NCBI GenBank assembly: GCA_039033415.1
Contig: JBCCCR010000022.1
Location: 29,579-93,578, forward strand
Length of the DNA: 64,000 nt
Direction: 5' to 3'
Source: Pseudomonadota bacterium
GTDB taxonomy: Bacteria; Pseudomonadota; Gammaproteobacteria; Xanthomonadales; SZUA-38
Positions 11,452-26,430 of the stretch are shown here, piece after piece. Numbering within the stretch: the first letter of the stretch is position 1; every line of letters starts with the position of its first letter. The notes below the pieces were generated by a model. That model searched no databases, was not told the DNA's origin, and saw only the letters and a program-made list of their open reading frames with translations. The translations under genes were made by a program, and so were the position numbers.

Positions 11452-11692
11452 GCCGACGCTCCTTCCTGGATGCGGTGAGTGTGCCCTGATGACCAGGCGA
11501 TTGCACTTATCGACAACCCCTTAAGTGCAACTGATCCAGGGATTAAGTTGTCTACACTGGGGACGGCGCCTGACTCTCCCGCGTTCGGGCTGAGCGACGC
11601 CACAGGAAAAACGGCCTAAATCCAGAGGTTCGGCAGGTTTTCTCAACCTCCTGCGCCTTGCCTGGCCCACGGACTCGTTCTACTCTTTGCTT

Positions 11693-13222
11693 ATGACACC
11701 AGTGTCCACGCGTCATTCTTTATGCTTCAGTCTGCTGCTTGCGGTCGCGCTGAGCGGCGCAACCCCGTTTGCCGGCGCCCAAACTTTGCCCGAAACTGAG
11801 GCGGCTACCGCCCCGCAGGACGCTCAGTCCAGCGCTGAAGCATCCAACCTTCCGGCCGCTGCTGCGGACGACGTCACGCCCTCACCGGGCGTTGTAGAAG
11901 CTGAGCTCGACGACGAAGAGCAGGCGATGTACGACGAGCTGACCGGGACGGACTCATCCAAGCGGGAGTCGAAGTTCGGCCAAATCGGCGACCTGCGTGT
12001 CGACCGTTACGAGGCTCGCCAGGTATTCATCAACTACATGCGGTCTGAGGAGTATCCGCAGGCGATTGACGCCGCGGCGACCGGGCTTGAGCTGACCCGC
12101 ACCGAGCTCGGTGAAGGTCATCTCGAAACCGTGCCCTATATCAATGATCTCGGCAACGCGCTCCTGCGCAACGGTCAGCCTGGCGAGGCGCGCATCCAGT
12201 TTGAAAAGAGCGTCAACCTCCTGCGCGAAAAGGCGGGCATCTTCAGCACCGAGCTGGTGGAGCCTCTGATCGGCATGGGCCTGGCGTTCCAGGATATGTC
12301 TGAGCACGACCAGGCGATCGATACCTTCAACTACGCGCAGCACGTGACCCACCGGGATCAGGGTGTCTACAACCTCGATCAGATTCGCATTATTGAAGCC
12401 ACCGCCAGCAGCTTTGCGGCACAGGAGCAGTGGCTGCAGGCGGAAAACCTGCACCTCCTGGCCTACAAGCTCTACAAGCGCAACTACGGCGTCGACAGCG
12501 AGGACGCGCTGCCGGGCCTTTACCGACTCGCCCGCTGGTATCAGCAGGTACAGGACTATCGCCAGGCGCGGGTGGTATACCGCAAAGCGATGGCCAGCAT
12601 CGCCGAGATTCACGGCGAGCGTTCGCCCAAGCTGATTCCGCCGTTGAAAGGTATTGCCGGGGCTTATCTCGAAGAGAACGGTCCGGACGCGATCAAAGGG
12701 CTCCGCGCCTCCGAAGACATTCTGGACATCATGAACGACAACCCCCAGGAGTTCAGCATGGAGCAGCGCATCCTGGCGCACCTGGAGATGGGTGACTGGT
12801 TTGTGCAGTTCAATCGGTCCGATGACGCCTGGGGGCAATATCGGGCCGGCTGGGAGCTGGCCCAGACCGATGGGGAAAGCGGCCGCGACTGGTCGCAGTA
12901 TTTCGACCGGCCGCACCTGATCTACCCCGGCGCCCGGCTGGGTCTTGAGGTGATTGGCTACGGCCGGGTCGGCGATGAGGTTTACTACGACTTCCAGTTT
13001 ACGATCGCCCGCAGCGGCCGACCCGAAGATATCGAAATTATCGGCACCAACCTTCACGGACAGACCCGATCGGTCGCGCTGCAGGCGTTTCGCTTTGCGC
13101 GGTTCCGGCCCCGCATCGTTGATGGTGCGACGGTGGCCACGCCGGGCTACAAGGTCCGCCGGGTTTATCCCACCGACGCGCCCCCCGGCTACGGCACGGC
13201 GGACGTTGGGCAGCGTGGCTAG
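11693..13222 (+). CDS. secreted TPR-repeat protein with a TonB-C-terminal-like domain
   Basis: Signal peptide 'LLLAVALSGATPFAGAQ', then TPR-like helical repeats. The C-terminus 'VYYDFQFTIARSGRPEDIEIIG...ALQAFRFARFRPRIVDG' follows the TonB_C pattern. The start is moved to ATG 11693 because the track start is TTG 11687. Confidence 0.65.
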   Translation: MTPVSTRHSLCFSLLLAVALSGATPFAGAQTLPETEAATAPQDAQSSAEASNLPAAAADDVTPSPGVVEAELDDEEQAMYDELTGTDSSKRESKFGQIGDLRVDRYEARQVFINYMRSEEYPQAIDAAATGLELTRTELGEGHLETVPYINDLGNALLRNGQPGEARIQFEKSVNLLREKAGIFSTELVEPLIGMGLAFQDMSEHDQAIDTFNYAQHVTHRDQGVYNLDQIRIIEATASSFAAQEQWLQAENLHLLAYKLYKRNYGVDSEDALPGLYRLARWYQQVQDYRQARVVYRKAMASIAEIHGERSPKLIPPLKGIAGAYLEENGPDAIKGLRASEDILDIMNDNPQEFSMEQRILAHLEMGDWFVQFNRSDDAWGQYRAGWELAQTDGESGRDWSQYFDRPHLIYPGARLGLEVIGYGRVGDEVYYDFQFTIARSGRPEDIEIIGTNLHGQTRSVALQAFRFARFRPRIVDGATVATPGYKVRRVYPTDAPPGYGTADVGQRG

Positions 13223-13272
13223 ACCACACCTCGTCAATTGCGCCGCGGATCTCATGACGATCCGTCAGGCAT

Positions 13273-13306
13273 AAAAAAAGCGGCTTACTCGAGCCGCTTT
13301 TTTTTT
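13273..13306. terminator. bidirectional rho-independent terminator
   Basis: A7 run, stem 'agcggct' (13279-85) paired with 'agccgct' (13292-98), 6-nt loop, then a T9 run (13298-13306). It lies between convergent genes. Confidence 0.8.
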
Positions 13307-13346
13307 CGGGGAATCGGTTCCGACACCGCCCTGAAGCGTTAAGACA

Positions 13347-14003
13347 TTAACCTGCCAGAATGTCACCGAGCTGCTGGCCAAGACTCTTGCACGACGCGTT
13401 CTTGGTCCGGGCAATCAGCGGCAGCGGCACACCCAAAGCGGGCACCACCGACGTGCCGGTGGCCTCCGTGCTGATGATGCCCATGGGCTCGCCGGCCTGG
13501 ATATCCCAGATGGACGCTTCATAGTTGGAGTTGTTGTCCCAGCTCAAGACCCCGAGACAGCCACCGCCGGCCGGGCTGAGCGTACAGGTCATCACCCCCT
13601 GCTTGTTGCGGGCCTCCGACTCGCCGTGGATCCACACCAGGTAGCGGACGTTGAGGTCTTCCACTCGCTTGGCGATGACCGGCTCTTCGAGCAGCACGTT
13701 CACCAGCTCCGCCCGGGTGGGCGCCAGCCGCGGCTCAAACCAGGGAAACATCTCGTCTTTGAAGCGGTTCTCGCTGATGATATTGACGTCACCGGCCCGG
13801 GATCGGAGCTGGCCGAAGAGGCACTCGGAGAAGCTGTCTTCGGTCTCGATCACAGCGTCCTGGCGATTGGTGAGGATCACCACCGACTCGTCGCCGCTCA
13901 TATCCAGATCGGTTTGCATAAACTCTTCCACGCGCGCCGTGACGCAACCCGACAGCGCGACCGTCAGCGCGGCCGTGACACCCAGTCGAAAACCTGGATT
14001 CAT
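13347..14003 (-). CDS. hypothetical lipoprotein
   Basis: Lipobox 'ALSGC' after 'MNPGFRLGVTAALTV'. ATG 14003 forms an ATGA overlap with the upstream lipoprotein gene stop. Confidence 0.7.
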   Translation of the reverse strand: MNPGFRLGVTAALTVALSGCVTARVEEFMQTDLDMSGDESVVILTNRQDAVIETEDSFSECLFGQLRSRAGDVNIISENRFKDEMFPWFEPRLAPTRAELVNVLLEEPVIAKRVEDLNVRYLVWIHGESEARNKQGVMTCTLSPAGGGCLGVLSWDNNSNYEASIWDIQAGEPMGIISTEATGTSVVPALGVPLPLIARTKNASCKSLGQQLGDILAG

Positions 14004-14638
14004 GGTGAACTTACCTCGTTTGGTGGCAGCGGCGTGCGCCACTGCTGCTTTTCAACAACGCCTTTGAACTGGCTGACCATGGCGGCGGCGGCATCGCGCA
14101 GTGCGAGCGTCGTCGCCTCGCCGAGTGACTGGTTGCCGTTAACAAACCGCTTGCGGTCTTTGCCGTAGGCGACAAATGGCCAGTACCCCACAATGGTGCC
14201 CTGGTCGGAATAGAGCCGGATCTGATACTTCATCGAGACGGCGTAAAAGTTGGTGGCGGTCTCAGCGGGCGACAGAAACGCATATTCTTCGAGGACCGGT
14301 TCGAGCACAAGGTCGACGCCATAGCTGGAGTTGTCCTGATCTGGGCTGGGTACCGCGATGGTCTGCTCGAACAGCGCGCCGAAGATTTTGTCGTACACCG
14401 CCTGCTGTTTGGTGCCCAGCTCGAAGGTCAGCTTGCCTTCCTCTTCGGTGTAAACGTACTGGCTGAACTGCGGGCTGTAATAGATGCCGGCGCTGAAGGG
14501 CAGGGGCTGCACAACCGGCTCAGGAAACTCCTGCTCGATGACCACCGTGCCGGCGCAGCCGGCGAGGGTCAAAGCCATTAGCAGGGCGAACAACAGACGG
14601 ATGGGACGCCGCTCTCGGCGTTGCGGATGGATCCTCAC
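14000..14638 (-). CDS. hypothetical lipoprotein
   Basis: 'LLFALLMALTLAGC' lipobox. GTG start. Translationally coupled to the downstream lipoprotein gene. Confidence 0.7.
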   Translation of the reverse strand: MRIHPQRRERRPIRLLFALLMALTLAGCAGTVVIEQEFPEPVVQPLPFSAGIYYSPQFSQYVYTEEEGKLTFELGTKQQAVYDKIFGALFEQTIAVPSPDQDNSSYGVDLVLEPVLEEYAFLSPAETATNFYAVSMKYQIRLYSDQGTIVGYWPFVAYGKDRKRFVNGNQSLGEATTLALRDAAAAMVSQFKGVVEKQQWRTPLPPNEVSSP

Positions 14639-14930: not shown

Positions 14931-16097
14931 ATGAAGCAGCCGGTGCAAAACCTGTCTAGGACGTTGGGAACGCCTTTGGCGAACCCCGTAGCTACGCCTG
15001 CACGCTGGCTCCCGGTGTGTTTGCTGGCGCTGGCCGCCGGGTGCGCCAGCCAGAGCCAAATGCAGCAGCAGCAAATGCCGCAGATGCCGTCTCCTTCGGC
15101 CTCCCCGCCGTCGCCACCGTCGATGCCGTCGTCGTCGCCGAGCATGCCGTCGCCCTCGCCGAGCATGCCGACCCCGAGTATGCCGTCACCCAGCATGCCA
15201 ACACCGTCGATGCCAACACCTTCGGGCGCCCCTTCTTCACCGAGTCCAGAGCAGTCGCCAAGTGCCCAGCCGCCGGGTTCCAGCAGCCCGAGTGAAGCCG
15301 GCGCGGAGTCGCAGGCGAACGCCGAGTCGAGCGCGGCTGGCGGTACCAGCGAGCTGGAAGTCTTAGAGCCGGAAGAGTCCGAAGCGTCCGCGGATGCGAG
15401 CGCTGAGCCCACCTGGGACGAAGGAGAAAGCGGTGGCGAAGAGTCGCTCGCCGACGCCTCCGAGAGCTCGGCGGGTGGCGGTGCATCGGGCGGCGAAGAG
15501 TCGCTGGAAGAAGAATCACTCGCTGAGGCCGGTGAAGCCGGTGCCAGCGGCGGCGCGCCGGGCGGCGGCGACCCCACCAGCGGCGAGATGGCTGCCGCCA
15601 CCGGCGGCATGCCGGGCGGCGCTTCACCGGCGGGTACGGAGCAGTCGCTTGAGGCGGAGCTGAATAGTTCGCTCGAGATCTTCGAAGGTGAAATGGAACG
15701 CACCATCACCATCCTGGCCTCCAATGACGATGCTGACGGCGATGCGCAGGGCGCCGCCGGCGGCAACGGCGGCGAAGAGGAAGAGGGTGGGCTGTTTGAT
15801 CAGACGGGTGCCGGCGCTGAGCTGGTGCTGGTAAACGGCGATCCCTCGCTGCTGCCGGGTAGTTCCCAGGACGTGGATGGTGAGACGGGCGACGAACCGA
15901 TCACCGGCCGGCCCGGGCTGGAAGGCGGGGGTACGGCCAACGAAACTTATCCTCGCGTACCGGGCGATGTGGGTGACGGCCTGGACGACGACGTGGTCGC
16001 GCGTCAGATTCGTGAAGCAGCGATCAACGAAGACGACCCGTCGCTGCGTGAGAAGCTGTGGGAAGAGTACCGCAACTACAAAAAATCCATTCAATGA
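14931..16097 (+). CDS. lipoprotein with Pro/Ser/Met tandem repeats and a long polyacidic, low-complexity region
   Basis: Lipobox 'LALAAGC', then 'PSMPSSSPSMPSPSPSMPTPSMPSPSMPTPSMPTPS', then about 250 aa rich in E/D/G/S/A. The C-terminus 'DDVVARQIREAAINEDDPSLREKLWEEYRNYKK' looks more ordered. Start at ATG 14931 with GGAGA 8 nt upstream (the track start is TTG 14859). Confidence 0.7.
   Translation: MKQPVQNLSRTLGTPLANPVATPARWLPVCLLALAAGCASQSQMQQQQMPQMPSPSASPPSPPSMPSSSPSMPSPSPSMPTPSMPSPSMPTPSMPTPSGAPSSPSPEQSPSAQPPGSSSPSEAGAESQANAESSAAGGTSELEVLEPEESEASADASAEPTWDEGESGGEESLADASESSAGGGASGGEESLEEESLAEAGEAGASGGAPGGGDPTSGEMAAATGGMPGGASPAGTEQSLEAELNSSLEIFEGEMERTITILASNDDADGDAQGAAGGNGGEEEEGGLFDQTGAGAELVLVNGDPSLLPGSSQDVDGETGDEPITGRPGLEGGGTANETYPRVPGDVGDGLDDDVVARQIREAAINEDDPSLREKLWEEYRNYKKSIQ
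15069..15225 (+). repeat. imperfect in-frame tandem repeat (15-21 nt units containing 'ATGCC(G/A)') encoding (P-S-M-P-S/T)n
   Basis: 'atgcc' recurs at 15075, 15084, 15123, 15144, 15165, 15180, 15195 and 15210. The last four are spaced exactly 15 nt apart. Confidence 0.75.
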
Positions 16098-16105
16098 GGA
16101 ACGTC

Positions 16106-17311
16106 ATGTCAAGGATCGTTTCAGTGACCGTTGTGCTGGCCCTTGCGGCTGCCCTGTCCGCTTGCACCACCGCCACGGTGAAAACCGTTAACTCGGTTCA
16201 AATCGACAAAGCCGATCAGGAGCTGGCTCAGGATCAGCTGCTGGATGTGGGTCTGCAGATTTTTAATCCGGGCATACCCGCCGACCAGGAAGACCGGGAA
16301 GACGACAACATCTATCCGGCCGTCCGCCGGGCTGAGGCTCGCTACGTCCCTTACCTGCTGCGGACCACGCTCGAGGAGTCTAACCAATGGGGGGCGGTGC
16401 GGGTGCTGCCGGGTGAAGACCCGGCCTCTGAGGTCACCGTCACCGGCGAGATTCTCCACTCCGACGGCGTGGTGCTGGAGGTGCGCGTCACCGCCACCGA
16501 CGCCACCGGGCGCACCTGGTTGGATAAGAAGTACGCTGACCTGGCGACCCAGTTTGCCTATCGCGACGACGTGGAGTACGACGGCGATGCGTTTCAGGAT
16601 CTGTACAACCTGGTCGCCAACGATCTGCGCAAGGCGCGCGACGAGCTGAGCCGTGAGGAGCTCAAGGAGATCCGCACCGTGGCCAATCTGCGCTACGCGG
16701 CGGAGGTGGCGCCGGACGCGTTCGGCAACCACCTGACCGAAGATCGCAACGGAGACGTGGTCATAAACCGCCTGCCCGCGTACGACGATCCGATGATGCG
16801 CCGCGTGGCCCGCATCCGGGAGAGTGAGTACCTGTTTATCGATACGGTCGATCAGCAGTACGCGGTGTTTTATCAGCAGATGGATCCCAGCTACGACCAG
16901 TGGCGTCGATACTCCTACGAGGAGACGCTGGCCGAAGAAGACATCAAGCGCTCCGCCCGGACCCGTATGCTCGCCGGCCTGCTGGGTGTGGTGGGTGGCG
17001 CGGCCATCTCGTCCAACGCCAACGGCAACTGGGCCCAGAACAGTATCGGCAACGCTGCCGCGCTGGGCGGCCTATACGCCCTGAAGCAGAGCTACGACAC
17101 CTATCAGGAAGCCAAGATCCACCAGGAGGCGCTCAAAGAACTCGCCGCGTCGTTCGACGCTGAGGTCAAGCCGATTGTGCTGGAGGTGGAAGGTGAGGTC
17201 GTGAAACTCAACGGCACCCTCGACGCGCAGTACCAGGAATGGCGTCGGCTGATGCGGGAGATCTACGAAGCCGAGACCGGCATACCCGTAGCGGACGCGG
17301 TTCCGCAATAA
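16106..17311 (+). CDS. hypothetical lipoprotein
   Basis: 'VVLALAAALSAC' lipobox. ATG 16106 has GAGGA 5 nt upstream. The in-frame ATG 16094 (ATGA overlap with the upstream stop) is an alternative start. Confidence 0.7.
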   Translation: MSRIVSVTVVLALAAALSACTTATVKTVNSVQIDKADQELAQDQLLDVGLQIFNPGIPADQEDREDDNIYPAVRRAEARYVPYLLRTTLEESNQWGAVRVLPGEDPASEVTVTGEILHSDGVVLEVRVTATDATGRTWLDKKYADLATQFAYRDDVEYDGDAFQDLYNLVANDLRKARDELSREELKEIRTVANLRYAAEVAPDAFGNHLTEDRNGDVVINRLPAYDDPMMRRVARIRESEYLFIDTVDQQYAVFYQQMDPSYDQWRRYSYEETLAEEDIKRSARTRMLAGLLGVVGGAAISSNANGNWAQNSIGNAAALGGLYALKQSYDTYQEAKIHQEALKELAASFDAEVKPIVLEVEGEVVKLNGTLDAQYQEWRRLMREIYEAETGIPVADAVPQ

Positions 17312-17322
17312 GCGACGACCCC

Positions 17323-19545
17323 ATGCCCACTGATCCGACAACGCTGGAACAGTTCAGCGACCGGCAGCCTTTGCCTGGCGCGAGCGGAAATAGCCTGCTC
17401 GCGAACCTGGACGGCGCACCGGTCCGGCTGCGACGGCTGCCGCTGACACCCGACGCGGTGACGGCGGCCCGGCAGCAGCTGGCGGCTGCGGCCGGCATCA
17501 GCCATCCAGCGATTGTGCCGGACAGCGGTCTGCTGGTGCAGGACGGTGAGGTTTGGGTATGGCGGCCGGAGCTGGAAGGTGAGGCCCCCGTCAGCGACGA
17601 CCAGGAACAGCGGCTGGCGTTCGCCCAGCGCACCTGTGAAGCGCTGGGGCTGATTCATCGAGCGGGCTTTGCGCATGGCGCGGTGGACGGCATACACCTC
17701 ATCATGACGCCCGCGGACGGCCTGAAGCTCGTCGATCCGACGCTCGACGCCGCAGCGACACCCACCCAGGACATGCAGGCACTCGGACGCGTGCTGTTTG
17801 AGTGGGAGACGGGGCAGAGCGCCCAAAATCTTCAGCAGCCGGAGCTGGCCGCCGCGCTCACGCGGCAAGCGGCCCAGCGGCCGCTACCGCCTCGTCTGGC
17901 GCGTCTGATCCTGCAGCTGCTATCCGAAGAACCGCCGGCCGCAACGCTGGCGGCTGAAGACCTCGAGGACATCCGGCTGAGTCTCGCCCGAGCGGATGCC
18001 CAGGTGCAGGCGCACTGGCAAACCGAATCGTATGAGCCGGTCAAAGCCGTCAAGGGCTCGACACCCTCGATTAGCCCGGTGCAACCCGCCGCGCAGCCAC
18101 AATCGAAGGCGCCAGCTTTTATCGCTACCGCCGCCGCCTGCGTGCTGCTGCTGGCGATTGTATTTGTCGTTGGCGTCCTGCCCGACCGGGTTGCCCCCGA
18201 ACCCGAGCGCGTCGCTGAGACCGCGGCCGCTGCGCCCGAGCCGGCAGCGCCCGAACCGCCGCCGCCGGCGGCGGCGCCGCTGAGTCAGGCTGACCTTGAG
18301 CGTCTGCTGCGCCAGCGTGAGTCGGCTCAGGCGGTGCTGGACGAGCTGATCAATCTCCAGCTGGAGCTGGAGGAGCAGCAGGTGGAACGCTGGGCCGAAC
18401 GGCGGTTTGGTGAGGCGCGCGATCTGGCCGCGTCCGGCGATGAGCCGTTTCGCGAGCAGCAGTTCGAGCTCGCGGAAAAGATTTATGCCGATGCGTTTCA
18501 GGAGATGCAGGCTGTTGCAGCGCTTCGTCCCATCATTGTGGCCGAGGCGCTGGAGCGAGGACGTTACGCGTTCGACCGGGGCAACGCGGCGGACGCGAGC
18601 GACGCCTACTCGCTGGCGCTGGCGATCGATCCGGAAAACGAGCAGGCCAAGATCGGTAAAGCCCGGTCCGAAACGCTGGATCGGGTCAAAGCGCTGATGG
18701 CGGACGTCATGGAGGCGCGCGACGAGCTCCGCCTCAGCGACGCCCTGTCGCTGCTAGACCAGGTGCTGGCACTCGACCCCCTGACCGAAGAAGCGGTCGG
18801 GCTCAAAAGTGAACTGCAAACCGAGCTGGCTGACGCGCGCTTTCGCAACGCGATGTCGGACGGGCTGGCCGCGCTGTCGGCAGGCCGCTGGCAGGAGGCG
18901 CGCACGGCGCTGAATCGGGCCGCCAAGCTTGAGCCGGCCAACCGCGCGCCGAAAGACGCGCTGATCGAACTGGAGCGGCGGCAGCGCGATGCGCTGGTCG
19001 CCCGCGATATTGGCAAAGCCCGCACGGCGCAGGATCAGGAGCGCTGGGAAGCGGCCATCAAACACTTCGACGATATCTTAAAGCGCGACCCCAACTCGCG
19101 GGTGGCCCAGGAAGGGCGTGCCCAGGCGGTTGAGCGGCAGGATCTGGACCAGCGGCTCACCTCGCTGCTGCGAGACCCGGCCCAGCTCTGGTCCAACGAG
19201 GGCCGCTCGACGGCGCGTTCGTTGCTTTACGACGCGCGGGCGATCGAGGGTCCTGGCCCGCGGCTGCGCGACCAGCTCGTCCGCCTCGACCAACAGATCG
19301 ACCTTGCGGCGCGGCCGCAGCCGGTGACGCTGGTGTCCGACAACGCCTGCAACGTGGTGGTCTATAAGGTCGCGCGCCTCGGGCAGTTCGACCGGCACCA
19401 GCTTGAGCTGCTGCCCGGCCGCTATACGGCGGTCGGCACGCGCGACGGCTACCGCGATGTCCGCGTCGAATTTATGGTCCCGGCCGACCAGGCGCCGCAG
19501 CCGGTCTCGCTGCGCTGCGAAGAACAGGTCCTGGCGCGAGGCTAA
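17323..19545 (+). CDS. Hanks-kinase-like (apparently catalytically dead) domain - TM helix - coiled coil/TPR repeats - PEGA-like C-terminus
   Basis: Kinase-like blocks 'ISHPAIV', 'LGLIHRAGFAHGAVDGIHLIM', 'LKLVDPTL' and 'ALGRVLFEWETG'. TM helix 'FIATAAACVLLLAIVFVVGVL'. At least 4 TPR-like units ('..ALAIDPENEQA..', '..LALDPLTEEA..', '..AKLEPANRAP..', '..ILKRDPNSRVA..'). Start at ATG 17323. Confidence 0.7.
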   Translation: MPTDPTTLEQFSDRQPLPGASGNSLLANLDGAPVRLRRLPLTPDAVTAARQQLAAAAGISHPAIVPDSGLLVQDGEVWVWRPELEGEAPVSDDQEQRLAFAQRTCEALGLIHRAGFAHGAVDGIHLIMTPADGLKLVDPTLDAAATPTQDMQALGRVLFEWETGQSAQNLQQPELAAALTRQAAQRPLPPRLARLILQLLSEEPPAATLAAEDLEDIRLSLARADAQVQAHWQTESYEPVKAVKGSTPSISPVQPAAQPQSKAPAFIATAAACVLLLAIVFVVGVLPDRVAPEPERVAETAAAAPEPAAPEPPPPAAAPLSQADLERLLRQRESAQAVLDELINLQLELEEQQVERWAERRFGEARDLAASGDEPFREQQFELAEKIYADAFQEMQAVAALRPIIVAEALERGRYAFDRGNAADASDAYSLALAIDPENEQAKIGKARSETLDRVKALMADVMEARDELRLSDALSLLDQVLALDPLTEEAVGLKSELQTELADARFRNAMSDGLAALSAGRWQEARTALNRAAKLEPANRAPKDALIELERRQRDALVARDIGKARTAQDQERWEAAIKHFDDILKRDPNSRVAQEGRAQAVERQDLDQRLTSLLRDPAQLWSNEGRSTARSLLYDARAIEGPGPRLRDQLVRLDQQIDLAARPQPVTLVSDNACNVVVYKVARLGQFDRHQLELLPGRYTAVGTRDGYRDVRVEFMVPADQAPQPVSLRCEEQVLARG

Positions 19546-19604: not shown

Positions 19605-21722
19605 ATGAGCGACCTGAAAACGCCCGCGCAGCAGAGCTCGGGTGACGATCACTTTGAGGTCATCACGCCGACCGACTTTCAGCCGGCGGCGGCGACCACC
19701 AGCCGCGGCATTGGCGGCGTGTCGTGGTGGACCGTCGGCAGCTTCGCGCTGCTCGGACTGGTGGCGGGCTGTGCCCTATACCTCTTCACCGCGCGCTCGG
19801 TCCTGATCGACATCGCGCCGGCCCCCGACTCGATGGAGCTGGACGGGGCGCTGCTGTTTCCGCTGAAGCTCGGCGAGCGGTGGCTGCTGCACCCTGGCGG
19901 CTACACGGTGGAGGCGACCCTCGAGGGCTATCATCCGCTCAAGACCGACTTTGCCGTGCTGTCGGAAGACGGCCAGCAGTTTGCCTTCACCATGGACAAG
20001 CTGCCTGGACTGCTCAGCGTGACGGCCGGTGACGTGCCCGGTGCCCACGTCTGGGTGGACGGTCAGCCGCTGAGCCCCGCGCCGCTCAGCCAGCACGAGC
20101 TGGAACCCGGCACCTATCAGCTGACGGTGCGCGCGCCCCGCTATCGCGACTTCGACCAGACCATCGACATCGAGGGCAAGCAGATCGAGCAGACCGTTGC
20201 GGCGGTCCTCGAGCCCGCCTGGGCCGACGTTCAGCTGACGAGCACCCCGGCCGGGGCCACGCTTTACGTGGACGGCGATCCGGTGGGGGAAACGCCGCTG
20301 ACGGCGCAGATCCTCGAAGGCGAACGCGACCTGTCGCTGCAGCTTGAGGGCTACAAAGATTGGGCCACCGGCCTCACCCTGACCGCCGGCGCTGAGCTGG
20401 CGCTGCCGACGGTGGAGCTGACGCCGGCTGACACCCTGGTCACCGTGGCCAGCACCCCTAGCGGTGCCAGCGTGACCGTGGAAGGCGAGTATCGCGGACA
20501 AACGCCGCTGCGGCTGGCGCTGGCGCCGGGCCGTTCTTACCGCATGGGCTTCACTCGGGCTGGCTACCAGTCGCGGCAGCGCGTCGTGGACGTGGCTGAG
20601 GGTGATGACACCCGGCTCAACATCCGGCTTCAGCCAATCCTCGGGGTTGTGCAGATGGCGGGTGAACCCGAAGATGCCGAGGTTTATGTCGACGGCGTAT
20701 TCCAGGGCCGGCTGAACGACCGCTTCGAGCTGGCGGCGCATCCGCAGCGCATCGAGGTGCGGCGCGAGGGCTATCAGCCTTACAGCACCACCGTGACGCC
20801 GAGCCCAAACCAGGAGCAGCTGCTGAACGTGGAGCTCACCAGTTTCGCGGACGCGGCGGCTGAGGCCAATCCAGACACCCTGGTGACCAGCACCGGCTAT
20901 GAGCTCAAGCTGATCCGGCCCAGCGGCGTGTATCGCCTGGGCAGCCCGCGGCGCGAGCAGGGTCGGCGCTCCAACGAATTCATCCGCCAGGTCCAGCTGG
21001 AGAAGCCGTTTTATCTCGGCACCCGGGAAGTGACCAACCTTCAGTTTAAGGCGTTCAGCTCGAGCCACGACTCCGGCATCGCGAGCACCAACAGCCTGAG
21101 CCTGAAGGATCAGCCGGTGGTGCGGATCAGCTGGGATCAGGCTGCGCGGTTCTGTAACTGGCTCAGCGCCAAAGAAGGCCTGCCCGCGGCTTATCAGGAG
21201 AGCAATGGCGTGATGGTGCCGGTCACTCCGATGACCATCGGCTATCGGCTGCCCAGCGAAGCGGAGTGGGCTTATGCTGCCCGCTATGGCGGCGGCTCCC
21301 AGTCCGCGCGCAAATATCCGTGGGGTGAGCAGATGCCGCCGCCGGGCGCCGCCGGCAACTTTGCCGGCACGGAGTCCAGCAGTGAGGTGGAGCGCGGCCT
21401 GTCGAACTACACCGACGAATATCCCGTCAGCGCGCCGGTGGCGCGTTACGGCAGCAGCTCGCTGGGGCTGCACGATCTGGGTGGCAACGTGCACGAGTGG
21501 ATTCACGACTACTACCTGATCAGCAGCAGCGGCCTCGGCAAATCGCCGCTCGATCCGCTGGGCGCGGCGGAAGGCAACAATCACGTGATCCGCGGCTCCA
21601 GCTGGCGCAGCGGCAGCATCACGGAGCTACGTTTGGCCTGGCGCGACCAGGGCTCCGGCGGCAAGGACGACATCGGCTTCCGCGTGGCGCGCTACATCGA
21701 CCAGGGCGGAGGAACGCCATGA
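19605..21722 (+). CDS. TM-anchored protein with about 5 PEGA-like repeats and a C-terminal FGE/SUMF1-type (formylglycine-generating-enzyme-like) domain
   Basis: TM helix 'WWTVGSFALLGLVAGCALYLF'. PEGA-like units such as 'TSTPAGATLYVDGDPVGETP...LEGYKDW' and 'ASTPSGASVTVEGEYRGQTP...RAGYQS'. FGE-like blocks 'VTNLQFKAF', 'ISWDQAARFCNWLS', 'YRLPSEAEWAYAARYG', 'GNVHEWIHD' and 'VIRGSSWRS'. GAGGAG SD 7 nt upstream. Confidence 0.8.
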   Translation: MSDLKTPAQQSSGDDHFEVITPTDFQPAAATTSRGIGGVSWWTVGSFALLGLVAGCALYLFTARSVLIDIAPAPDSMELDGALLFPLKLGERWLLHPGGYTVEATLEGYHPLKTDFAVLSEDGQQFAFTMDKLPGLLSVTAGDVPGAHVWVDGQPLSPAPLSQHELEPGTYQLTVRAPRYRDFDQTIDIEGKQIEQTVAAVLEPAWADVQLTSTPAGATLYVDGDPVGETPLTAQILEGERDLSLQLEGYKDWATGLTLTAGAELALPTVELTPADTLVTVASTPSGASVTVEGEYRGQTPLRLALAPGRSYRMGFTRAGYQSRQRVVDVAEGDDTRLNIRLQPILGVVQMAGEPEDAEVYVDGVFQGRLNDRFELAAHPQRIEVRREGYQPYSTTVTPSPNQEQLLNVELTSFADAAAEANPDTLVTSTGYELKLIRPSGVYRLGSPRREQGRRSNEFIRQVQLEKPFYLGTREVTNLQFKAFSSSHDSGIASTNSLSLKDQPVVRISWDQAARFCNWLSAKEGLPAAYQESNGVMVPVTPMTIGYRLPSEAEWAYAARYGGGSQSARKYPWGEQMPPPGAAGNFAGTESSSEVERGLSNYTDEYPVSAPVARYGSSSLGLHDLGGNVHEWIHDYYLISSSGLGKSPLDPLGAAEGNNHVIRGSSWRSGSITELRLAWRDQGSGGKDDIGFRVARYIDQGGGTP

Positions 21723-22042
21723 ACCAAAATGCCTTAAAGATCATGCTGGCTATGCTGCTCGGTCTCGGCCTTACAGGGCTGGCGGCCGGTCAGGCTGACG
21801 ACGCCGCCGACAAGTCGGAGACGGCCGAGGAGGCCAACGAATCCGCCGCGGAGTTCGACCCCGCGGTATGCCAGGAGCCGCCGGCGGAAGGGGAGACCCT
21901 ACCGTCCGAATGCGCGGAGCTGGCGGGCGAAGGGCCTACCAACGACGTCGACGCGGGTGAAATGCGCGCCACGATGCGTCGCTTCGTCCCGAGCGAACAA
22001 ATCTCGGAAGACAGCTCAGTGGCGTTTCCCAACGACATCTGA
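21719..22042 (+). CDS. small secreted acidic protein (107 aa)
   Basis: ATG 21719 overlaps the upstream stop (ATGA). Signal peptide 'MNQNALKIMLAMLLGLGLTGLAAG', then a D/E-rich region with 2 Cys. The track ORF starting at 21497 is an upstream extension that overlaps the FGE-like gene. Confidence 0.6.
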   Translation: MNQNALKIMLAMLLGLGLTGLAAGQADDAADKSETAEEANESAAEFDPAVCQEPPAEGETLPSECAELAGEGPTNDVDAGEMRATMRRFVPSEQISEDSSVAFPNDI

Positions 22043-22104: not shown

Positions 22105-22932
22105 ATGGACGGTACTGTCAGGACACCCACAACGATGAAAAAAGGTTTCCCGGTTGAGTTTGTGTTTCAGCTTTTTGCGCTGCTCGTGTCGGTGCTGATT
22201 GTGCATACCGTGTACGTCACGGTGGTGCGCCCGGCGGCCGCTGAGGTGATGCAGGCGCAGACGCAGGCGATCGCAGAAGACCCCAACTACGTGCCGGAGC
22301 GATCCGTTTACGTTCTGATCCGGGACTTTGAGCAGGAGGCCTGTTTTGTGCTGCTGTTCTGGGCGCTGGCGATTATGGCCTACAAAGCCTATCGGGGTTT
22401 GCGGGAGCGCCGGCTGCTCGAACAGGTGCTTATGCCCGTCGGCGACGGCATCAGTATCCTGCCGGAAGACACGCGCGAATACTCGCGCCCACTGCAGGCG
22501 CTGCCCGATCAGGAGCGCCGCTTTCTATTGCCCAAGGTGCTGCTGACGGCGCTGCACCGCTTTCGCTCCACGCGGGACATCCAGAGCGTGGCGACCACGG
22601 TGCGCGAGCTCTGTGAGCAGGAGGCGGAGCGCCTCGAATCGGAGCTCTCGATGGTGCGCTACATCGCCTGGGCGATTCCCTCCATTGGATTTATCGGCAC
22701 CGTGCGCGGGATCGGTGAAGCGCTGGCGCAGGCCCACAAGGCCGTGGAGGGTGACATCACCGGCGTCACGGACTCGCTAGGCGTGGCGTTTAACTCCACG
22801 TTTATTGCGCTGGTCCTGAGTATCTTTCTGATGTTTCTGATGCACCAGCTCCAGCTGATGCAGGAGCGCCTGTCGCTGGACGCGCAGGACTACGCCGAAG
22901 AAAACCTGATCGGGAAGCTGCGTGAGTCGTAA
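22105..22932 (+). CDS. MotA/TolQ/ExbB-family proton-channel protein
   Basis: N-terminal TM helix, a long cytoplasmic segment, then a TM2/TM3 pair 'YIAWAIPSIGFIGTVRGIGEAL' ... 'GVAFNSTFIALVLSIFLMFLMHQ'. This mirrors the ExbB/TolQ '..P.(L/I)G(L/F).GTV.GI' signature. Confidence 0.8.
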   Translation: MDGTVRTPTTMKKGFPVEFVFQLFALLVSVLIVHTVYVTVVRPAAAEVMQAQTQAIAEDPNYVPERSVYVLIRDFEQEACFVLLFWALAIMAYKAYRGLRERRLLEQVLMPVGDGISILPEDTREYSRPLQALPDQERRFLLPKVLLTALHRFRSTRDIQSVATTVRELCEQEAERLESELSMVRYIAWAIPSIGFIGTVRGIGEALAQAHKAVEGDITGVTDSLGVAFNSTFIALVLSIFLMFLMHQLQLMQERLSLDAQDYAEENLIGKLRES

Positions 22933-22974: not shown

Positions 22975-24357
22975 GTGATCGGCGTTGTCGAACTCAATGA
23001 CGCCGGCCTGCTGGTAGCGGCTGACGGCACCGAGCTGCTGGAGAGCCCGGGCTACCTGGCGTTTGAAGGCAAAAACCTTCATGTCGGGGCGGCCGCGGCG
23101 CAGCGCGTCAAGCTGATCCCCACGCAGACCCAGTACGCCTTCTGGGAATACTTTGCGAGCGAAACGCTCCCGACGGGCCAGCTGCCCCAGGCGGGCCTGA
23201 AACACGCGGATCTCGCCTATCGTCACCTGGAGCGCCTGTGGAGCATCGTCGGCAAGGACCTCAAGCAGCTGGTGCTGTGTGTACCGGCCGACTGGGGCCG
23301 GGCGGAGCTCGGTCTGCTGCTGGGGATCTGCCAGACGCTCAAGATTCCCGTGCGCGCGCTGGTCAATGTGGCGCTGGCGGCCAGCGCGATGCCCCAGCCC
23401 GGGCGTACGCTGATGCACCTGGACATCCATCTGCACCGGCTGGTGCTGAGCACGCTGGACCAGGGGCCGTGGCTGTCGCAGGCGGCGGTTGAGAGCACCC
23501 GAGAGGTGGGCCTGCTGCGGCTGCTCGACGGCTGGGCGTTTGCAGCGGCCGGCGCGTTTGTGCAGGCCACCCGCTTTGACCCGCTCCACCAGGCGCAGAC
23601 CGAGCAGCAGCTGTTCGATCGGCTGCCGGCGTGGCTGGCGGCGGCAAGCGGGCGCCGCCAGCTGTCGCTCAGCGTAGATCACAACGGCAATACGGTTGAG
23701 GCGCGGGCGCCTTCACAAATCTTCCGGGATGCCGCGGAACCCCTGTATCGCCGCATGGCGGAATTTGTCGGCTCACACCTTGCCGGCGTTGACCCGGTGT
23801 CGCTGGTGATCAGCCCGCGGCTTGCGGTTCTGCCGGGTGTCAGCGAGGAGCTGGCCGCGCTGCCGAACGTCCAGCTGATTCCGGGCGGACGGCTGGACTT
23901 CGCCGGCGTGCTGAATCGACTGTACCTGCCGCGGGACGCCGGCAAGGGTGGTGCGGTGAACGTCACCCGCATCCCCTGGTTCAAATCGGAGGACCAGGCG
24001 AGCCATGAGGCGCCGGGCAGCGCCCGCGCTTCGGCCCCGACCCATCTGCTCCACGAGCACACCGCCTACCGGCTGGCGGCGGGACAGCCGTTTGTAGTCG
24101 GCGCTGGCGTCCAGCAAAACGATGGGCTGAAGCTGGGCGGGGGCGGCGTGGGTGAGCGGCACTTCAGGCTGCGCCAGGAAAGTACCGGTTGGCTGCTGGA
24201 GGATCTGTCCGGCGGCGCCACCCGCATCAACGGCGAGCCGCTGGAGGGCCGCCGACCGGTTTCCGCCGGGGACCGCATCCAGCTTGGCAACCCGGCCCAG
24301 GAGCTGATCCTCATCGCCGAAGCCGCCACCGTGAGGTCTCCCAGTGCCGCGTCGTAA
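22975..24357 (+). CDS. cytoplasmic Hsp70/actin-like (ASKHA-fold-like, degenerate) protein with a C-terminal FHA-like domain
   Basis: The N-terminal region parallels Hsp70 blocks: 'IGVVELNDAGLLVAA' vs 'IGIDLGTTNS', 'LVLCVPADWGRAELGLLLGICQTLKIPVRALVNVALAASA' vs 'AVITVPAYFND..AG..V.RIINEPTAAALA', and 'LMHLDIHLHRLVLS' vs 'VLVFDLGGGTFDVS'. The C-terminus 'ERHFRLRQESTGWLLEDLSGGATRINGEPLEGRRPVSAGDRIQLG' is FHA-like. GTG start. Confidence 0.6.
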   Translation: MIGVVELNDAGLLVAADGTELLESPGYLAFEGKNLHVGAAAAQRVKLIPTQTQYAFWEYFASETLPTGQLPQAGLKHADLAYRHLERLWSIVGKDLKQLVLCVPADWGRAELGLLLGICQTLKIPVRALVNVALAASAMPQPGRTLMHLDIHLHRLVLSTLDQGPWLSQAAVESTREVGLLRLLDGWAFAAAGAFVQATRFDPLHQAQTEQQLFDRLPAWLAAASGRRQLSLSVDHNGNTVEARAPSQIFRDAAEPLYRRMAEFVGSHLAGVDPVSLVISPRLAVLPGVSEELAALPNVQLIPGGRLDFAGVLNRLYLPRDAGKGGAVNVTRIPWFKSEDQASHEAPGSARASAPTHLLHEHTAYRLAAGQPFVVGAGVQQNDGLKLGGGGVGERHFRLRQESTGWLLEDLSGGATRINGEPLEGRRPVSAGDRIQLGNPAQELILIAEAATVRSPSAAS

Positions 24358-25435
24358 GCGCCAATTTAACGCCTTCAACCTGTCGTTTCTGGACATCATG
24401 TCCTGCGGCTTCGGCGCGGTGATCCTGTTTTTTGTGATCATCAATCACGCCCAGGACGAGCGGAACGACGACCTGACGGCGGACCTCTCCGGTGAGGTCA
24501 ACCTGGTGGAAACCGAGCTCAAGCTGGAGCAGCTGAACCTGGCGAAACTGCAGAACGCGCTGACGGAGGTCGAAGAGGAGATCGTGACGGCCCAGGGGGC
24601 TTCCGATCGTCTGCTGTCCGAGGTGGACGACACCGAGAAGGAGCTGTCGGAGCAGGACGCGGAGACCGCCGCCAAGCGCGAGCATATGAACCAGCTCATC
24701 ACCGATCTGAAGGCGCTGGAAAAGGAGCGCGACCGGCTACAGCAGCTCGAGACCGAAGGTGGCGAGAGCGTTCGCAGCTACACCGGCGAAGGTGACCGGC
24801 AGTACCTGACCGGGCTTCGGGTTGGCGGCCGGCGAATTGCCATCTTTGTGGACGCGTCAGCCTCCATGCTGGACGAGACGATCGTCAACGTGATCCGGCG
24901 CCGCAACCTGCCGGACGAGCAAAAGCTGCGGGCGGACAAGTGGCAGCGGGTTGTTCGGACCGTTGACTGGATTACGACGCAGGTGCCGGAAAACGCGCAG
25001 TTTCAGGTGTATACCTTCAATACCAAGGCCACGCCGGCGCTCGAGGGCACCGACGGCCAGTGGCTGGACGTGGAAAAAGGGCGCCGCCTGGATGAGGCGG
25101 TGGACCGGATTCGCAGCATCATTCCCACCGGCGGCACGCGGCTTCACTCGGTCACTGAAACCATCAACCGGATGAATCCACTGCCGGACAACGTGTTTCT
25201 GCTGGTGGACGGGTTGCCGACCCAGGGGCTGAATCCGGCCACCAAACGCGGCACCGTCACGTCCCGAGAGCGGGAGCGGTTTTTTTACGACGCCACCGCC
25301 GACCTGCCGATCGGCGTGCCGGTCAACACGATCCTGTTTCCCATGGAGGGTGATCCGAAGGCCGCCAGCGGCTTCTGGCGCCTGGCGATCCTCAGCGGCG
25401 GCTCGTTCATCACGCCCGCGAAGGACTGGCCATGA
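24344..25435 (+). CDS. ExbD/TolR/MotB-like TM helix (Asp17) - about 90-aa coiled coil - vWA domain protein, paralog 1
   Basis: 'MPRRKRQFNAFNLSFLDIMSCGFGAVILFFVII' has a basic N-terminus and a TM helix with Asp (codon 24392-94). Heptad-rich segment at about aa 45-137. vWA domain with MIDAS 'DASAS' (aa 170-174). GTG start has GAGG 7 nt upstream and a 14-nt overlap with the upstream gene. Confidence 0.75.
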   Translation: MPRRKRQFNAFNLSFLDIMSCGFGAVILFFVIINHAQDERNDDLTADLSGEVNLVETELKLEQLNLAKLQNALTEVEEEIVTAQGASDRLLSEVDDTEKELSEQDAETAAKREHMNQLITDLKALEKERDRLQQLETEGGESVRSYTGEGDRQYLTGLRVGGRRIAIFVDASASMLDETIVNVIRRRNLPDEQKLRADKWQRVVRTVDWITTQVPENAQFQVYTFNTKATPALEGTDGQWLDVEKGRRLDEAVDRIRSIIPTGGTRLHSVTETINRMNPLPDNVFLLVDGLPTQGLNPATKRGTVTSRERERFFYDATADLPIGVPVNTILFPMEGDPKAASGFWRLAILSGGSFITPAKDWP

Positions 25436-26430
25436 GCCGGCGTAAGCGCACCGTTGAGCAGGTCAGCCTGTCGTTCCTCGACTGCATCTGCTGTGGTTTC
25501 GGCGCCATCATTTTGCTGCTGGTGATCGTGAAAACGGCCGAGCCGATGATCATCGAGGAAACCCGCGAAGACTTAAGCGGGCTCCTGGCGGATCTGCAGG
25601 AGCAGCTGGTGCAAATCCGCGGCGAGACCACGGTACTGAACCGCGATCTGCAAACCAAAGAGGAACAGCTCTCGGAGGTTGAGGACAGCATCGCGCGCCT
25701 GCGGATGCTGCTGTCGACCCTCAAATCCGAGTTTGACTCCTCTTCCGATCAGAGTGACGCCATCACGGCGATCGAAAACCAGCTCAGCCGAGCCCGTCAG
25801 CAGCTCAACGAGATGCAGCGGCGGCTGAACTATTCCCGGGCGCTCGAAGACACCACGGTGGGTGGTATCCCGGTGGACAGCGAATACGTGATCTTTGTGA
25901 TCGACACCTCCGGCAGTATGCGCAACTTCGGCTGGGACCTCCTGCTGGATAAGATCATTGAGACCCTCGACGTTTACCCGGAAGTGAAGGGCATCCAGGT
26001 GCTCAACGACATGGGGGAATACATGTTCTCGCGCTATGCCGAGCGCTGGATTCCCGACTCGCCCGGGCGTCGTCGGGCGATCATCGATCGGATGAAAACC
26101 TGGAGCGCGTTTTCCAACTCCAGCCCCGTCGAGGGGATCACCAAGGCGATTGCCCGCTTCTACAAGCCGGGGCAAAAAATCAGCGTCTACGTTTTTGGCG
26201 ACGACTTTTCGGGCCGCTCCATCGCCCGCGTGATCGAGACGATCGACAAAATCAACCGTGAAGACGCTGAGGGCAACCGCCTGGTGCGGATCCACACGGT
26301 CGGCTTCCCGGTGTGGTTCACCGCGCCCCGCTCCCAGCAGGCATCGGTGGAGCGCTTTGCCACCCTGATGCGCCTGCTGGCGGAAAAAAATGGCGGAACC
26401 TTTGTCGGATTGAATTCTCACCAGCCGTAG
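25432..26430 (+). CDS. ExbD/TolR/MotB-like TM helix (Asp17) - coiled coil - vWA domain protein, paralog 2
   Basis: 'MSRRKRTVEQVSLSFLDCICCGFGAIILLLVIV' (Asp codon 25480-82). Coiled coil at about aa 45-133. vWA domain with MIDAS 'DTSGS' (aa 158-162). ATGA overlap with paralog 1. Confidence 0.75.
   Translation: MSRRKRTVEQVSLSFLDCICCGFGAIILLLVIVKTAEPMIIEETREDLSGLLADLQEQLVQIRGETTVLNRDLQTKEEQLSEVEDSIARLRMLLSTLKSEFDSSSDQSDAITAIENQLSRARQQLNEMQRRLNYSRALEDTTVGGIPVDSEYVIFVIDTSGSMRNFGWDLLLDKIIETLDVYPEVKGIQVLNDMGEYMFSRYAERWIPDSPGRRRAIIDRMKTWSAFSNSSPVEGITKAIARFYKPGQKISVYVFGDDFSGRSIARVIETIDKINREDAEGNRLVRIHTVGFPVWFTAPRSQQASVERFATLMRLLAEKNGGTFVGLNSHQP

Follow-up and report, generated by a model that had tools for sequence, protein, structure and literature searches.

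The 64,000-nucleotide stretch analysed here (positions 29,579 to 93,578 of contig JBCCCR010000022.1, assembly GCA_039033415.1, from a gammaproteobacterium of the Xanthomonadales; "the window" below) carries a row of genes, g1 to g9, whose third member, g3, encodes a membrane protein with a degenerate kinase domain at its N-terminus. An earlier sequence-only reading had described g3 as a membrane-anchored pseudokinase with a periplasmic coiled coil, TPR repeats and a PEGA-like end. The longest open reading frame (ORF) at this place spans 17239..19545 on the plus strand. Because the upstream gene ends at 17311 and the N-termini of the homologues agree with the ATG at 17323 (MPTDP...), we place the gene at 17323..19545 on the plus strand, as that reading had done, with a product of 740 residues. 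A 97%-identical homologue is P0001, a protein from a metagenome-assembled genome (MAG), and further full-length homologues are found in the protein database. The parts of g3, all on the plus strand, are listed below with the evidence for each.

17323..19545, plus strand: g3, whole gene, a bitopic pseudokinase/TPR/beta-sandwich protein of 740 residues (ORF, start, homologues)
17323..18006, plus strand: cytoplasmic pseudokinase domain, residues 1-228 (degenerate-clade profile, AlphaFold2, Foldseek)
17431..17433, plus strand: Arg37 at the position of the VAIK Lys (alignments, family tally)
17674..17697, plus strand: degenerate catalytic loop H118-G-A-V-D-G-I-H125 replacing HRDxKxxN (HMM alignment to GCN2 and PknA, tally)
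17734..17742, plus strand: D138-P-T replacing DFG, followed by a 12-residue stub for the activation segment (alignments)
18112..18180, plus strand: single transmembrane (TM) helix, residues 264-286 (Kyte-Doolittle hydropathy, 19-residue window, peak 2.9)
18181..18276, plus strand: Pro/Ala-rich periplasmic linker, residues 287-318 (read from the sequence)
18277..18408, plus strand: conserved amphipathic helix, residues 319-362, LLRQRExAQAxLDELINLQLELExQxVERWAER (alignment conservation)
18409..19158, plus strand: TPR-like region with four clear units of ~50 residues and one weak N-terminal unit (Pfam, PDB matches, repeat signature)
19159..19314, plus strand: helical connector, residues 613-664 (AlphaFold2; the model covers residues 640-664 and has a helix at ~646-662)
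19315..19527, plus strand: C-terminal transthyretin/PEGA-like beta-sandwich (hhalign, AlphaFold2, Foldseek)

All the peptide strings quoted in the sequence-only reading are located in this protein: VRLRR at residues 34-38, HPAIV at 61-65, LGLIHRAGFAHGAVDGIHLIM at 108-128, LKLVDPTL at 134-141, ALGRVLFEWETG at 153-164, and likewise the C-terminal strings. The one TM helix that it proposed coincides with a single hydropathy peak at residues 264-286, and the Pro/Ala linker that it placed behind the helix can be read in the sequence at residues 287-318.

Standard library searches do not recognize the N-terminal domain. Pfam Pkinase (PF00069) gave no match even at E≤10 when residues 1-246 or 1-326 were scanned, NCBIfam and PADLOC scans returned nothing for the g3 protein, and in a single-sequence search of the PDB the N-terminus had only a non-significant match to STRADalpha (E 0.16). 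Several homologues of the same length and architecture carry precomputed Pkinase domains in the protein database. A profile built from four degenerate N-termini, with no intact kinases among them, matched 330 PDB chains at E≤0.01, the best being GCN2 with an E-value of 4e-6, and all 60 of the 60 matches listed are protein kinases or pseudokinases. With this profile HMMER places HGAVDGIH...VDPT of the window onto HRDLKPMN...GDFG. When intact relatives were added to the profile, PknA was matched at E 4e-36. The AlphaFold2 model of the domain has a mean confidence (pLDDT) of 88.7, and Foldseek aligns it with PknB (E 8.7e-12, TM-score 0.67) and returns ~1,900 other matches with E≤0.001, of which all 50 of the 50 listed are kinase or pseudokinase entries. 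The N-terminal domain is a true Hanks-type kinase homologue: both profiles and the PknB match place it in the superfamily by homology and by fold, and together with the intact relatives of the same architecture they uphold the Hanks-kinase likeness that had been read from the sequence.

The residues needed for catalysis are largely gone from this domain. At the VAIK motif the window reads V-R-L-R37, so that in the alignments Arg37 takes the place of the Lys (in the family tally this column holds K 125 times and R 18 times), and the Glu of helix αC is replaced by Gln52, an assignment that depends on the alignment. HRD has become H118-G-A120 and the Asn of the catalytic loop His125, leaving no catalytic Asp. 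The Gly-rich loop is reduced to a remnant, PGASGN, in the context PLPGASGNSL. DFG is replaced by D138-P-T, in which the metal-binding Asp is kept. The activation segment and the P+1 loop are essentially deleted: 12 residues remain between the Asp of DFG and that of subdomain IX, where intact members have a median of 38. Of the equipment of a competent Ser/Thr kinase, the Lys, the catalytic Asp and Asn, the Gly-rich loop and the activation segment are thus missing and the DFG Asp is present. The sequence-only reading had been right about the lost Lys, from 'VRLRR', and about the lost catalytic Asp and Asn, from 'AHGAVDGIH', which the HMM alignment and the tally now confirm. It had also given DFG as 'DPT'; the motif is indeed altered, but its Asp is retained as D138, so that this residue does not count among the losses. 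The HMM alignment proposed there as a check places no intact Lys/Asp/Asn set with our own profiles, the Pfam model having no match at all. By a published definition, a pseudokinase has a kinase fold and has lost at least one residue of the catalytic triad, the loss being conserved in orthologues (10.1101/2025.01.12.632604). Two of the three triad residues are substituted here, and the degenerate state is common to the window protein (WIN in our alignments), P0001-P0004, L007 and L008.

The catalytic loss is set in an otherwise active family, for which an exhaustive profile search gave at least 150 full-length cluster representatives at E<1e-139. When 158 family sequences were aligned, 112 were found to keep the Lys/Asp/Asn/Asp set, 42 lack one or more of these residues and 4 have no kinase domain (P0006, P0008, P0056 and P0121). 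Relatives P0009 and P0010 have VALK, HRDxKxxN and DFG, P0007 has HGD and P0005 has HAA...DFA; degeneration has gone furthest in the window clade (WIN, P0001-P0004). The g3 family therefore appears from these alignments to be a large receptor Ser/Thr kinase family, mostly catalytically intact, in which degeneration of the kinase is recent and recurrent. Within the window clade the catalytic loop itself varies (HGA, HGG, HGD, HGR), and such variation among close relatives speaks against an active site of new origin. The named sources of family members are gammaproteobacterial MAGs (Lysobacterales, Steroidobacteraceae, Povalibacter and Halioglobus) and one Desulfobacterales MAG. A profile search with the C-terminal domain returned mostly fragments, with Steroidobacteraceae, Povalibacter, Halioglobus and one Desulfobacterales MAG again named, and a locus scan of the genome collection found six close MAG relatives. 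Kinase-less homologues of g3 were also seen at the locus level: L016, L018, L021 and L043 with 368 residues, L054 and L082 with 514 residues and L041 with 534 residues. In the shortest of them the TPR region is reduced as well, and the C-terminal beta-sandwich is kept in all.

Both the pseudokinase domain and the degenerate FHA domain described below are under purifying selection. Against L007, a relative with 96% identity, the window has 1.5 non-synonymous and 31.5 synonymous changes over the 225 codons of the pseudokinase domain, a ratio of non-synonymous to synonymous rates (dN/dS) of 0.016. In the same comparison dN/dS is 0.13 for the periplasmic part of g3, 0.11 for the degenerate FHA domain and 0.014-0.08 for the other cluster genes. 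No frameshifts or stops are present in the pseudokinase domain. At deeper divergence, where dS is saturated, the pseudokinase domain evolves faster (omega ~0.3) than the periplasmic part (0.13-0.16), which fits a constraint that is relaxed but real.

A second gene of the cluster, g7, bears on the loss of phosphotransfer. The C-terminus of its product is a genuine FHA domain, with PDB profile matches to Rad53, GarA and P. aeruginosa Fha1. In the window copy (24100..24357) the Arg that binds phospho-threonine (pThr) is replaced by Asp and the Ser by Gly; in intact-kinase relatives the FHA domain has the canonical pThr-binding Arg and an SRxH motif. We fetched 80 additional metagenomic loci out of ~270 found and tabulated g3 and g7. 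The Arg and the SRxH motif are present in all 16 loci with an intact kinase (14 distinct sequences). The Arg is missing in all lineages in which the kinase is dead or missing, with the exception of L002/L009, and the window clade mostly lacks it; the Ser is missing in the window clade and in three kinase-less lineages (those with a g3 of 368, 514 and 534 residues). We made a neighbour-joining tree of g6 together with g7 minus its FHA part. On it the four kinase-dead or kinase-less groups lie apart, each with lineages of intact kinase as neighbours, which implies that kinase and FHA pocket were lost together, independently, at least four times. Since decay of the FHA pocket tracks decay of the kinase, the FHA protein is the probable phospho-reader of this kinase family, and the correlated loss supports a real loss of phosphotransfer in the window lineage. 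For both points this covariation, which is drawn from sequence comparison, is the strongest evidence available. No description of kinase-FHA co-degeneration was found in the searched literature. One locus, L061, at first looked like a counter-example, with no kinase domain and an intact FHA pocket, and was set aside when a separate kinase ORF (Pkinase 1.9e-25) was found directly upstream. In L061 (1437..3893) the kinase and the TM-TPR-beta-sandwich part are adjacent separate ORFs, by gene split or frameshift.

The periplasmic module is conserved. The 44-residue helix 319-362 is among the most conserved segments of the family; its heptad pattern is imperfect, and the coiled coil that the sequence-only reading had seen here is not confirmed. 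The proposal of at least four TPR units fared better. The signature [AL]x[ILRM][DE]P recurs at residues 432, 481, 533 and 585, giving four clear units with an atypical spacing of ~50 residues rather than 34 and pairwise similarities of z = 2.2-4.0. Two of the units exceed the Pfam cut-offs (TPR_1 34.0 bits, cut-off 27.8; TPR_2 34.0 bits, cut-off 27), the Pfam scan of the g3 protein returned TPR families only, and the PDB TPR matches span the same stretches. Conservation across the family peaks in the C-terminal ~75 residues, where the pattern SD...PGxY...G.R.G..D.R...C is invariant. A Pfam scan of residues 627-740 gave no family at E≤10, PEGA (PF08308) included. Aligned by hhalign with the five PEGA repeats of the neighbouring gene g4, the C-terminus is matched over 40 columns with a probability of 88.6% and an E-value of 2.6e-6. 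The AlphaFold2 model of residues 640-740 (pLDDT 92.2) is a helix followed by a seven-strand sandwich, which Foldseek matches, at E 2e-4 to 4e-3, with carboxypeptidases N, M and D in their transthyretin-like regulatory domains. These domains belong to the fold class that includes PEGA. The PEGA-like end had therefore been seen correctly as a likeness, in alignment and in fold, and formal membership of the PEGA family is not borne out by Pfam. A further Foldseek match of this domain, to chain 9k1u_B of the RtkS-PpkA complex (E 5.5e-3), was too weak to build on.

The order g1-g9 recurs on one strand in close and distant relatives, in which the flanking genes are unrelated. The other members of the cluster are as follows.

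14931..16097, plus strand: g1, putative lipoprotein with a Ser/Pro-rich and an acidic low-complexity region, start uncertain (synteny, sequence)
16106..17311, plus strand: g2, conserved ~400-residue lipoprotein with lipobox LSAC, always directly upstream of the kinase gene (synteny, sequence)
19605..21722, plus strand: g4, TM-anchored, bearing five PEGA repeats plus a non-catalytic FGE/PorK-like domain (Pfam, PDB)
21719..22042, plus strand: g5, small secreted acidic protein (signal-peptide-like N-terminus; ORF at the same position in relatives)
22105..22932, plus strand: g6, TolQ/ExbB/MotA-like proton-channel protein (Pfam MotA_ExbB 2.5e-15, TolQ 5e-8)
22975..24357, plus strand: g7, ~330-residue N-terminal domain and C-terminal FHA domain with degenerate pThr pocket (Pfam, PDB profile, alignment)
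24344..25435, plus strand: g8, TM helix with an Asp (LSFLD), coiled coil and vWA domain (sequence; VWA_2 5e-8 in the L013 orthologue)
25432..26430, plus strand: g9, paralogue of g8 with LSFLD helix, coiled coil and a vWA domain with DTSGS (sequence, Pfam)

In g4, Pfam scores PEGA at 5e-50 and FGE-sulfatase at 4.5e-40 and counts four of the five PEGA repeats that are present; g4-type relatives share the layout of a TM helix, four to five PEGA repeats and an FGE fold. The best PDB matches of the FGE domain are the ring protein PorK/GldK of the type IX secretion system (T9SS), which is non-enzymatic, at 6.5e-17. True FGEs carry two catalytic cysteines, and the g4 domain has no Cys in the stretch where these enzymes bear the catalytic pair. 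The FGE-fold domain of g4 is thus probably a binding module and not an enzyme. The PEGA-FGE orthologues of L061 (3890..4400) and L013 (12220..12720) have an extra cytoplasmic N-terminal extension of ~100 residues that is absent from g4 of the window; it had looked FHA-like by eye, and this identity was dropped as no Pfam family matched.

Other members have features of their own. The first part of g1 (14931..15400) is a long low-complexity tract rich in Ser, Pro and Met (PSMPSPSPSMPTPSMP...), after which comes an acidic region rich in Glu, Gly and Ala, and the length of g1 differs greatly among relatives (148-412 residues). The N-terminal ~330 residues of g7 (22975..23960), which start with IGVVELNDAGLL..., form a conserved domain for which neither Pfam nor the PDB gave a sequence match; an actin/Hsp70-like ATPase identity, suggested by eye, was supported by no search. 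The VWA_2 match is weak in the window copies of g8 and g9 and reaches 5e-8 in the L013 orthologue. Upstream, at 11687..14638, lie u3, a TPR_12-type protein on the plus strand, and a divergently transcribed pair on the minus strand, u1 and u2, of ~215-230 residues without Pfam matches. The same u1/u2/u3 arrangement is found in L001, L002, L007, L009 and L014, and L012 has u1/u2 without the TPR gene; these genes may be part of an extended cluster. Assignment of the cluster to a defence system was rejected, as its support was limited to a weak ZorA-like similarity of the MotA/ExbB domain.

The layout of g3, with an N-terminal cytoplasmic kinase fold, one TM helix and extracytoplasmic sensor repeats, resembles that of receptor kinases of the PknB/PknA/StkP class, and PknA and PknB are the best PDB matches of its kinase domain. 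Pseudokinase derivatives of receptor kinases are known, among them the MviN-associated pseudokinase of M. tuberculosis. Unlike these, g3 has a TPR-like and transthyretin/PEGA-like periplasmic module and sits in a cluster with a TolQ-vWA motor. The bSTK atlas describes seven pseudokinase families on the basis of PF00069, of which ActPs3 shares with g3 the loss of the VAIK Lys and the HRD Asp and the deletion of the activation loop (10.1101/2025.01.12.632604). As the g3 domain is too diverged for PF00069, it was probably not captured there. Pseudokinases from bacterial receptor kinases are thus already known, and g3 is a Pfam-invisible variant within an uncharacterised motor cluster.

The PEGA and CarboxypepD_reg families offer a parallel for one part of the protein: the g3 C-terminus shares its fold and a PGxY...GY signature with the g4 PEGA repeats, but reaches no Pfam PEGA score. 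With the T9SS the cluster has in common the PorK/GldK-like FGE domain of g4, but no T9SS genes are present. The family COG1262, which we take to be FGE/SUMF1, also figures in type VI secretion systems (T6SS). There, threonine phosphorylation runs from TagR (COG1262) to PpkA to Fha1 (PMC13584744). In the T6SS set TagR, PpkA/TagE and Fha1/TagH, as here, an FGE-fold protein of the periplasm is encoded together with a bitopic Ser/Thr kinase and a protein with an FHA domain. The periplasmic domain of PpkA, however, is a vWA domain, whereas that of g3 consists of TPR and beta-sandwich; in the window both the kinase and the FHA pocket are degenerate, and family-library scans of the cluster genes found no T6SS families beyond a weak TagH-FHA match. 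The T6SS parallel is an analogy of logic only.

The motor part has a counterpart in the literature. A 2025 study predicted TolQ-like motors that work with pairs of heterologous transpore-helix (TPH)-vWA proteins and have no tolR/exbD (Mol Biol Evol, PMC12204202). On the description given in the relevant passages of that paper, g6, g8 and g9 correspond exactly to such a motor cluster: g6 lacks a tolR/exbD partner, and g8 and g9, which follow g7, are a vWA pair with the TM-Asp helix LSFLD. The word 'kinase' occurs 0 times in its main text, and in the passages concerned 'FHA' stands for FhaC only, with no discussion of FHA-domain or PEGA-FGE neighbours. The vWA-MoxR/FGS conflict systems (PMC7159879) were considered as a match and rejected for their different architecture. 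No description of the cluster with its kinase was found in the searched literature.

We consider it probable that g3 is the receptor-kinase subunit of a conserved envelope cluster, now a catalytically dead pseudokinase and likely a phospho-independent scaffold. Judged from the relatives, the ancestral protein would have been a bitopic Hanks-type Ser/Thr kinase with a TPR-like and transthyretin/PEGA-like periplasmic part. This part would have contacted partners and thereby activated the kinase, the obvious candidates being the PEGA-FGE protein g4 and the two lipoproteins. The kinase would have made a phospho-threonine mark in the cytoplasm, to be bound by the FHA protein that its operon encodes, and this coupling may have tied the sensor to a proton-driven TolQ-like motor with two vWA partner subunits. 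In the window lineage the switch appears to have been replaced by a constitutive assembly that does not depend on phosphorylation, and we would expect the domain to be inactive in vitro. The rigid kinase-fold domain would then be a surface in the cytoplasm on which other proteins dock, the FHA protein or the motor being the probable partners, and the conserved periplasmic module would hold the PEGA-FGE protein and the lipoproteins. Such a scaffold role, which the sequence-only reading had likewise proposed, is the most likely one from the sequence data, and it fits because purifying selection acts strongly on the dead domain and the whole cluster is kept in synteny.

Several points weigh against this interpretation. 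The domain still has the Asp of DFG, the His of HRD and an Arg where VAIK has its Lys. The covariation is drawn from a modest set of ~30 informative loci, with a simple tree made by neighbour-joining. The input alignment for AlphaFold2 held intact kinases and may have biased the model to a kinase fold, so that the degenerate-only sequence profile is the cleaner evidence. The remaining residues allow a different explanation, in which the domain is not dead and serves as a switch that binds nucleotides or as an enzyme of atypical kind (compare STRADalpha, HER3, WNK and SelO). It would use the retained DFG Asp, HRD His and Arg37, possibly on another class of substrate. D138, H118 and structural core residues are invariant across the degenerate clade, the domain is under very strong selection (dN/dS 0.016), and the bSTK atlas includes families with a conserved Lys-to-Arg change that may bind ligands (10.1101/2025.01.12.632604). 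The catalytic Asp, Asn and Lys, a canonical Gly-rich loop and the whole activation and P+1 segment are gone, however; the catalytic loop differs among close relatives (HGA, HGG, HGD, HGR), unlike a newly fixed active site; and the pThr reader of the operon has lost its pocket in parallel. We regard a live domain of this kind as unlikely.

It is a good deal less probable still that the N-terminal domain is a decaying, functionless relic and that only the periplasmic part matters. Several lineages do manage without a kinase domain (P0006, P0008, P0056 and P0121; L016, L054 and L041), and at depth the domain diverges faster than the periplasmic part (omega ~0.3 against 0.13-0.16). Against a relic speak the dN/dS of 0.016 to the 96% relative, a reading frame free of frameshifts and stops, and a confident, compact AlphaFold2 fold. 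As to whether the kinase likeness could be fortuitous, the N-terminus being an unrelated alpha/beta domain, the empty Pfam, NCBIfam and PADLOC scans and the best single-sequence PDB E-value of 0.16 would allow it, but the profile and structure searches refute it, as does the continuous series of homologues of the same architecture from intact to degenerate; we give this hardly any credence.

The role of the machine as a whole could equally lie in envelope tethering, in surface adhesion or motility, or in export. A more far-reaching proposal, which we put forward tentatively and with more doubt than confidence, is that the cluster encodes an uncharacterised trans-envelope machine driven by proton motive force, in which the ancestral kinase/FHA switch has been dismantled at least four times, kinase chemistry and pThr pocket being lost in concert, and the pseudokinase is an obligatory structural subunit. 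In such a machine a TolQ-like pentamer and two vWA 'rotor' subunits would be coupled to the PorK-like PEGA-FGE protein and the lipoproteins. If this is true, the family would offer a natural series of a signalling enzyme turned into a scaffold.

Bacterial pseudokinases are few and poorly understood, and surveys based on PF00069 would probably miss g3. Because g3 sits in a large and otherwise active family, the kinase can be compared directly within one family in its intact, partly decayed and dead states as well as in split and deleted form. The matching decay of the FHA pocket is a rare piece of evolutionary evidence for a real catalytic loss, and the link between kinase and FHA protein provides a concrete handle on the regulation of the TolQ-like/vWA motor predicted in 2025.

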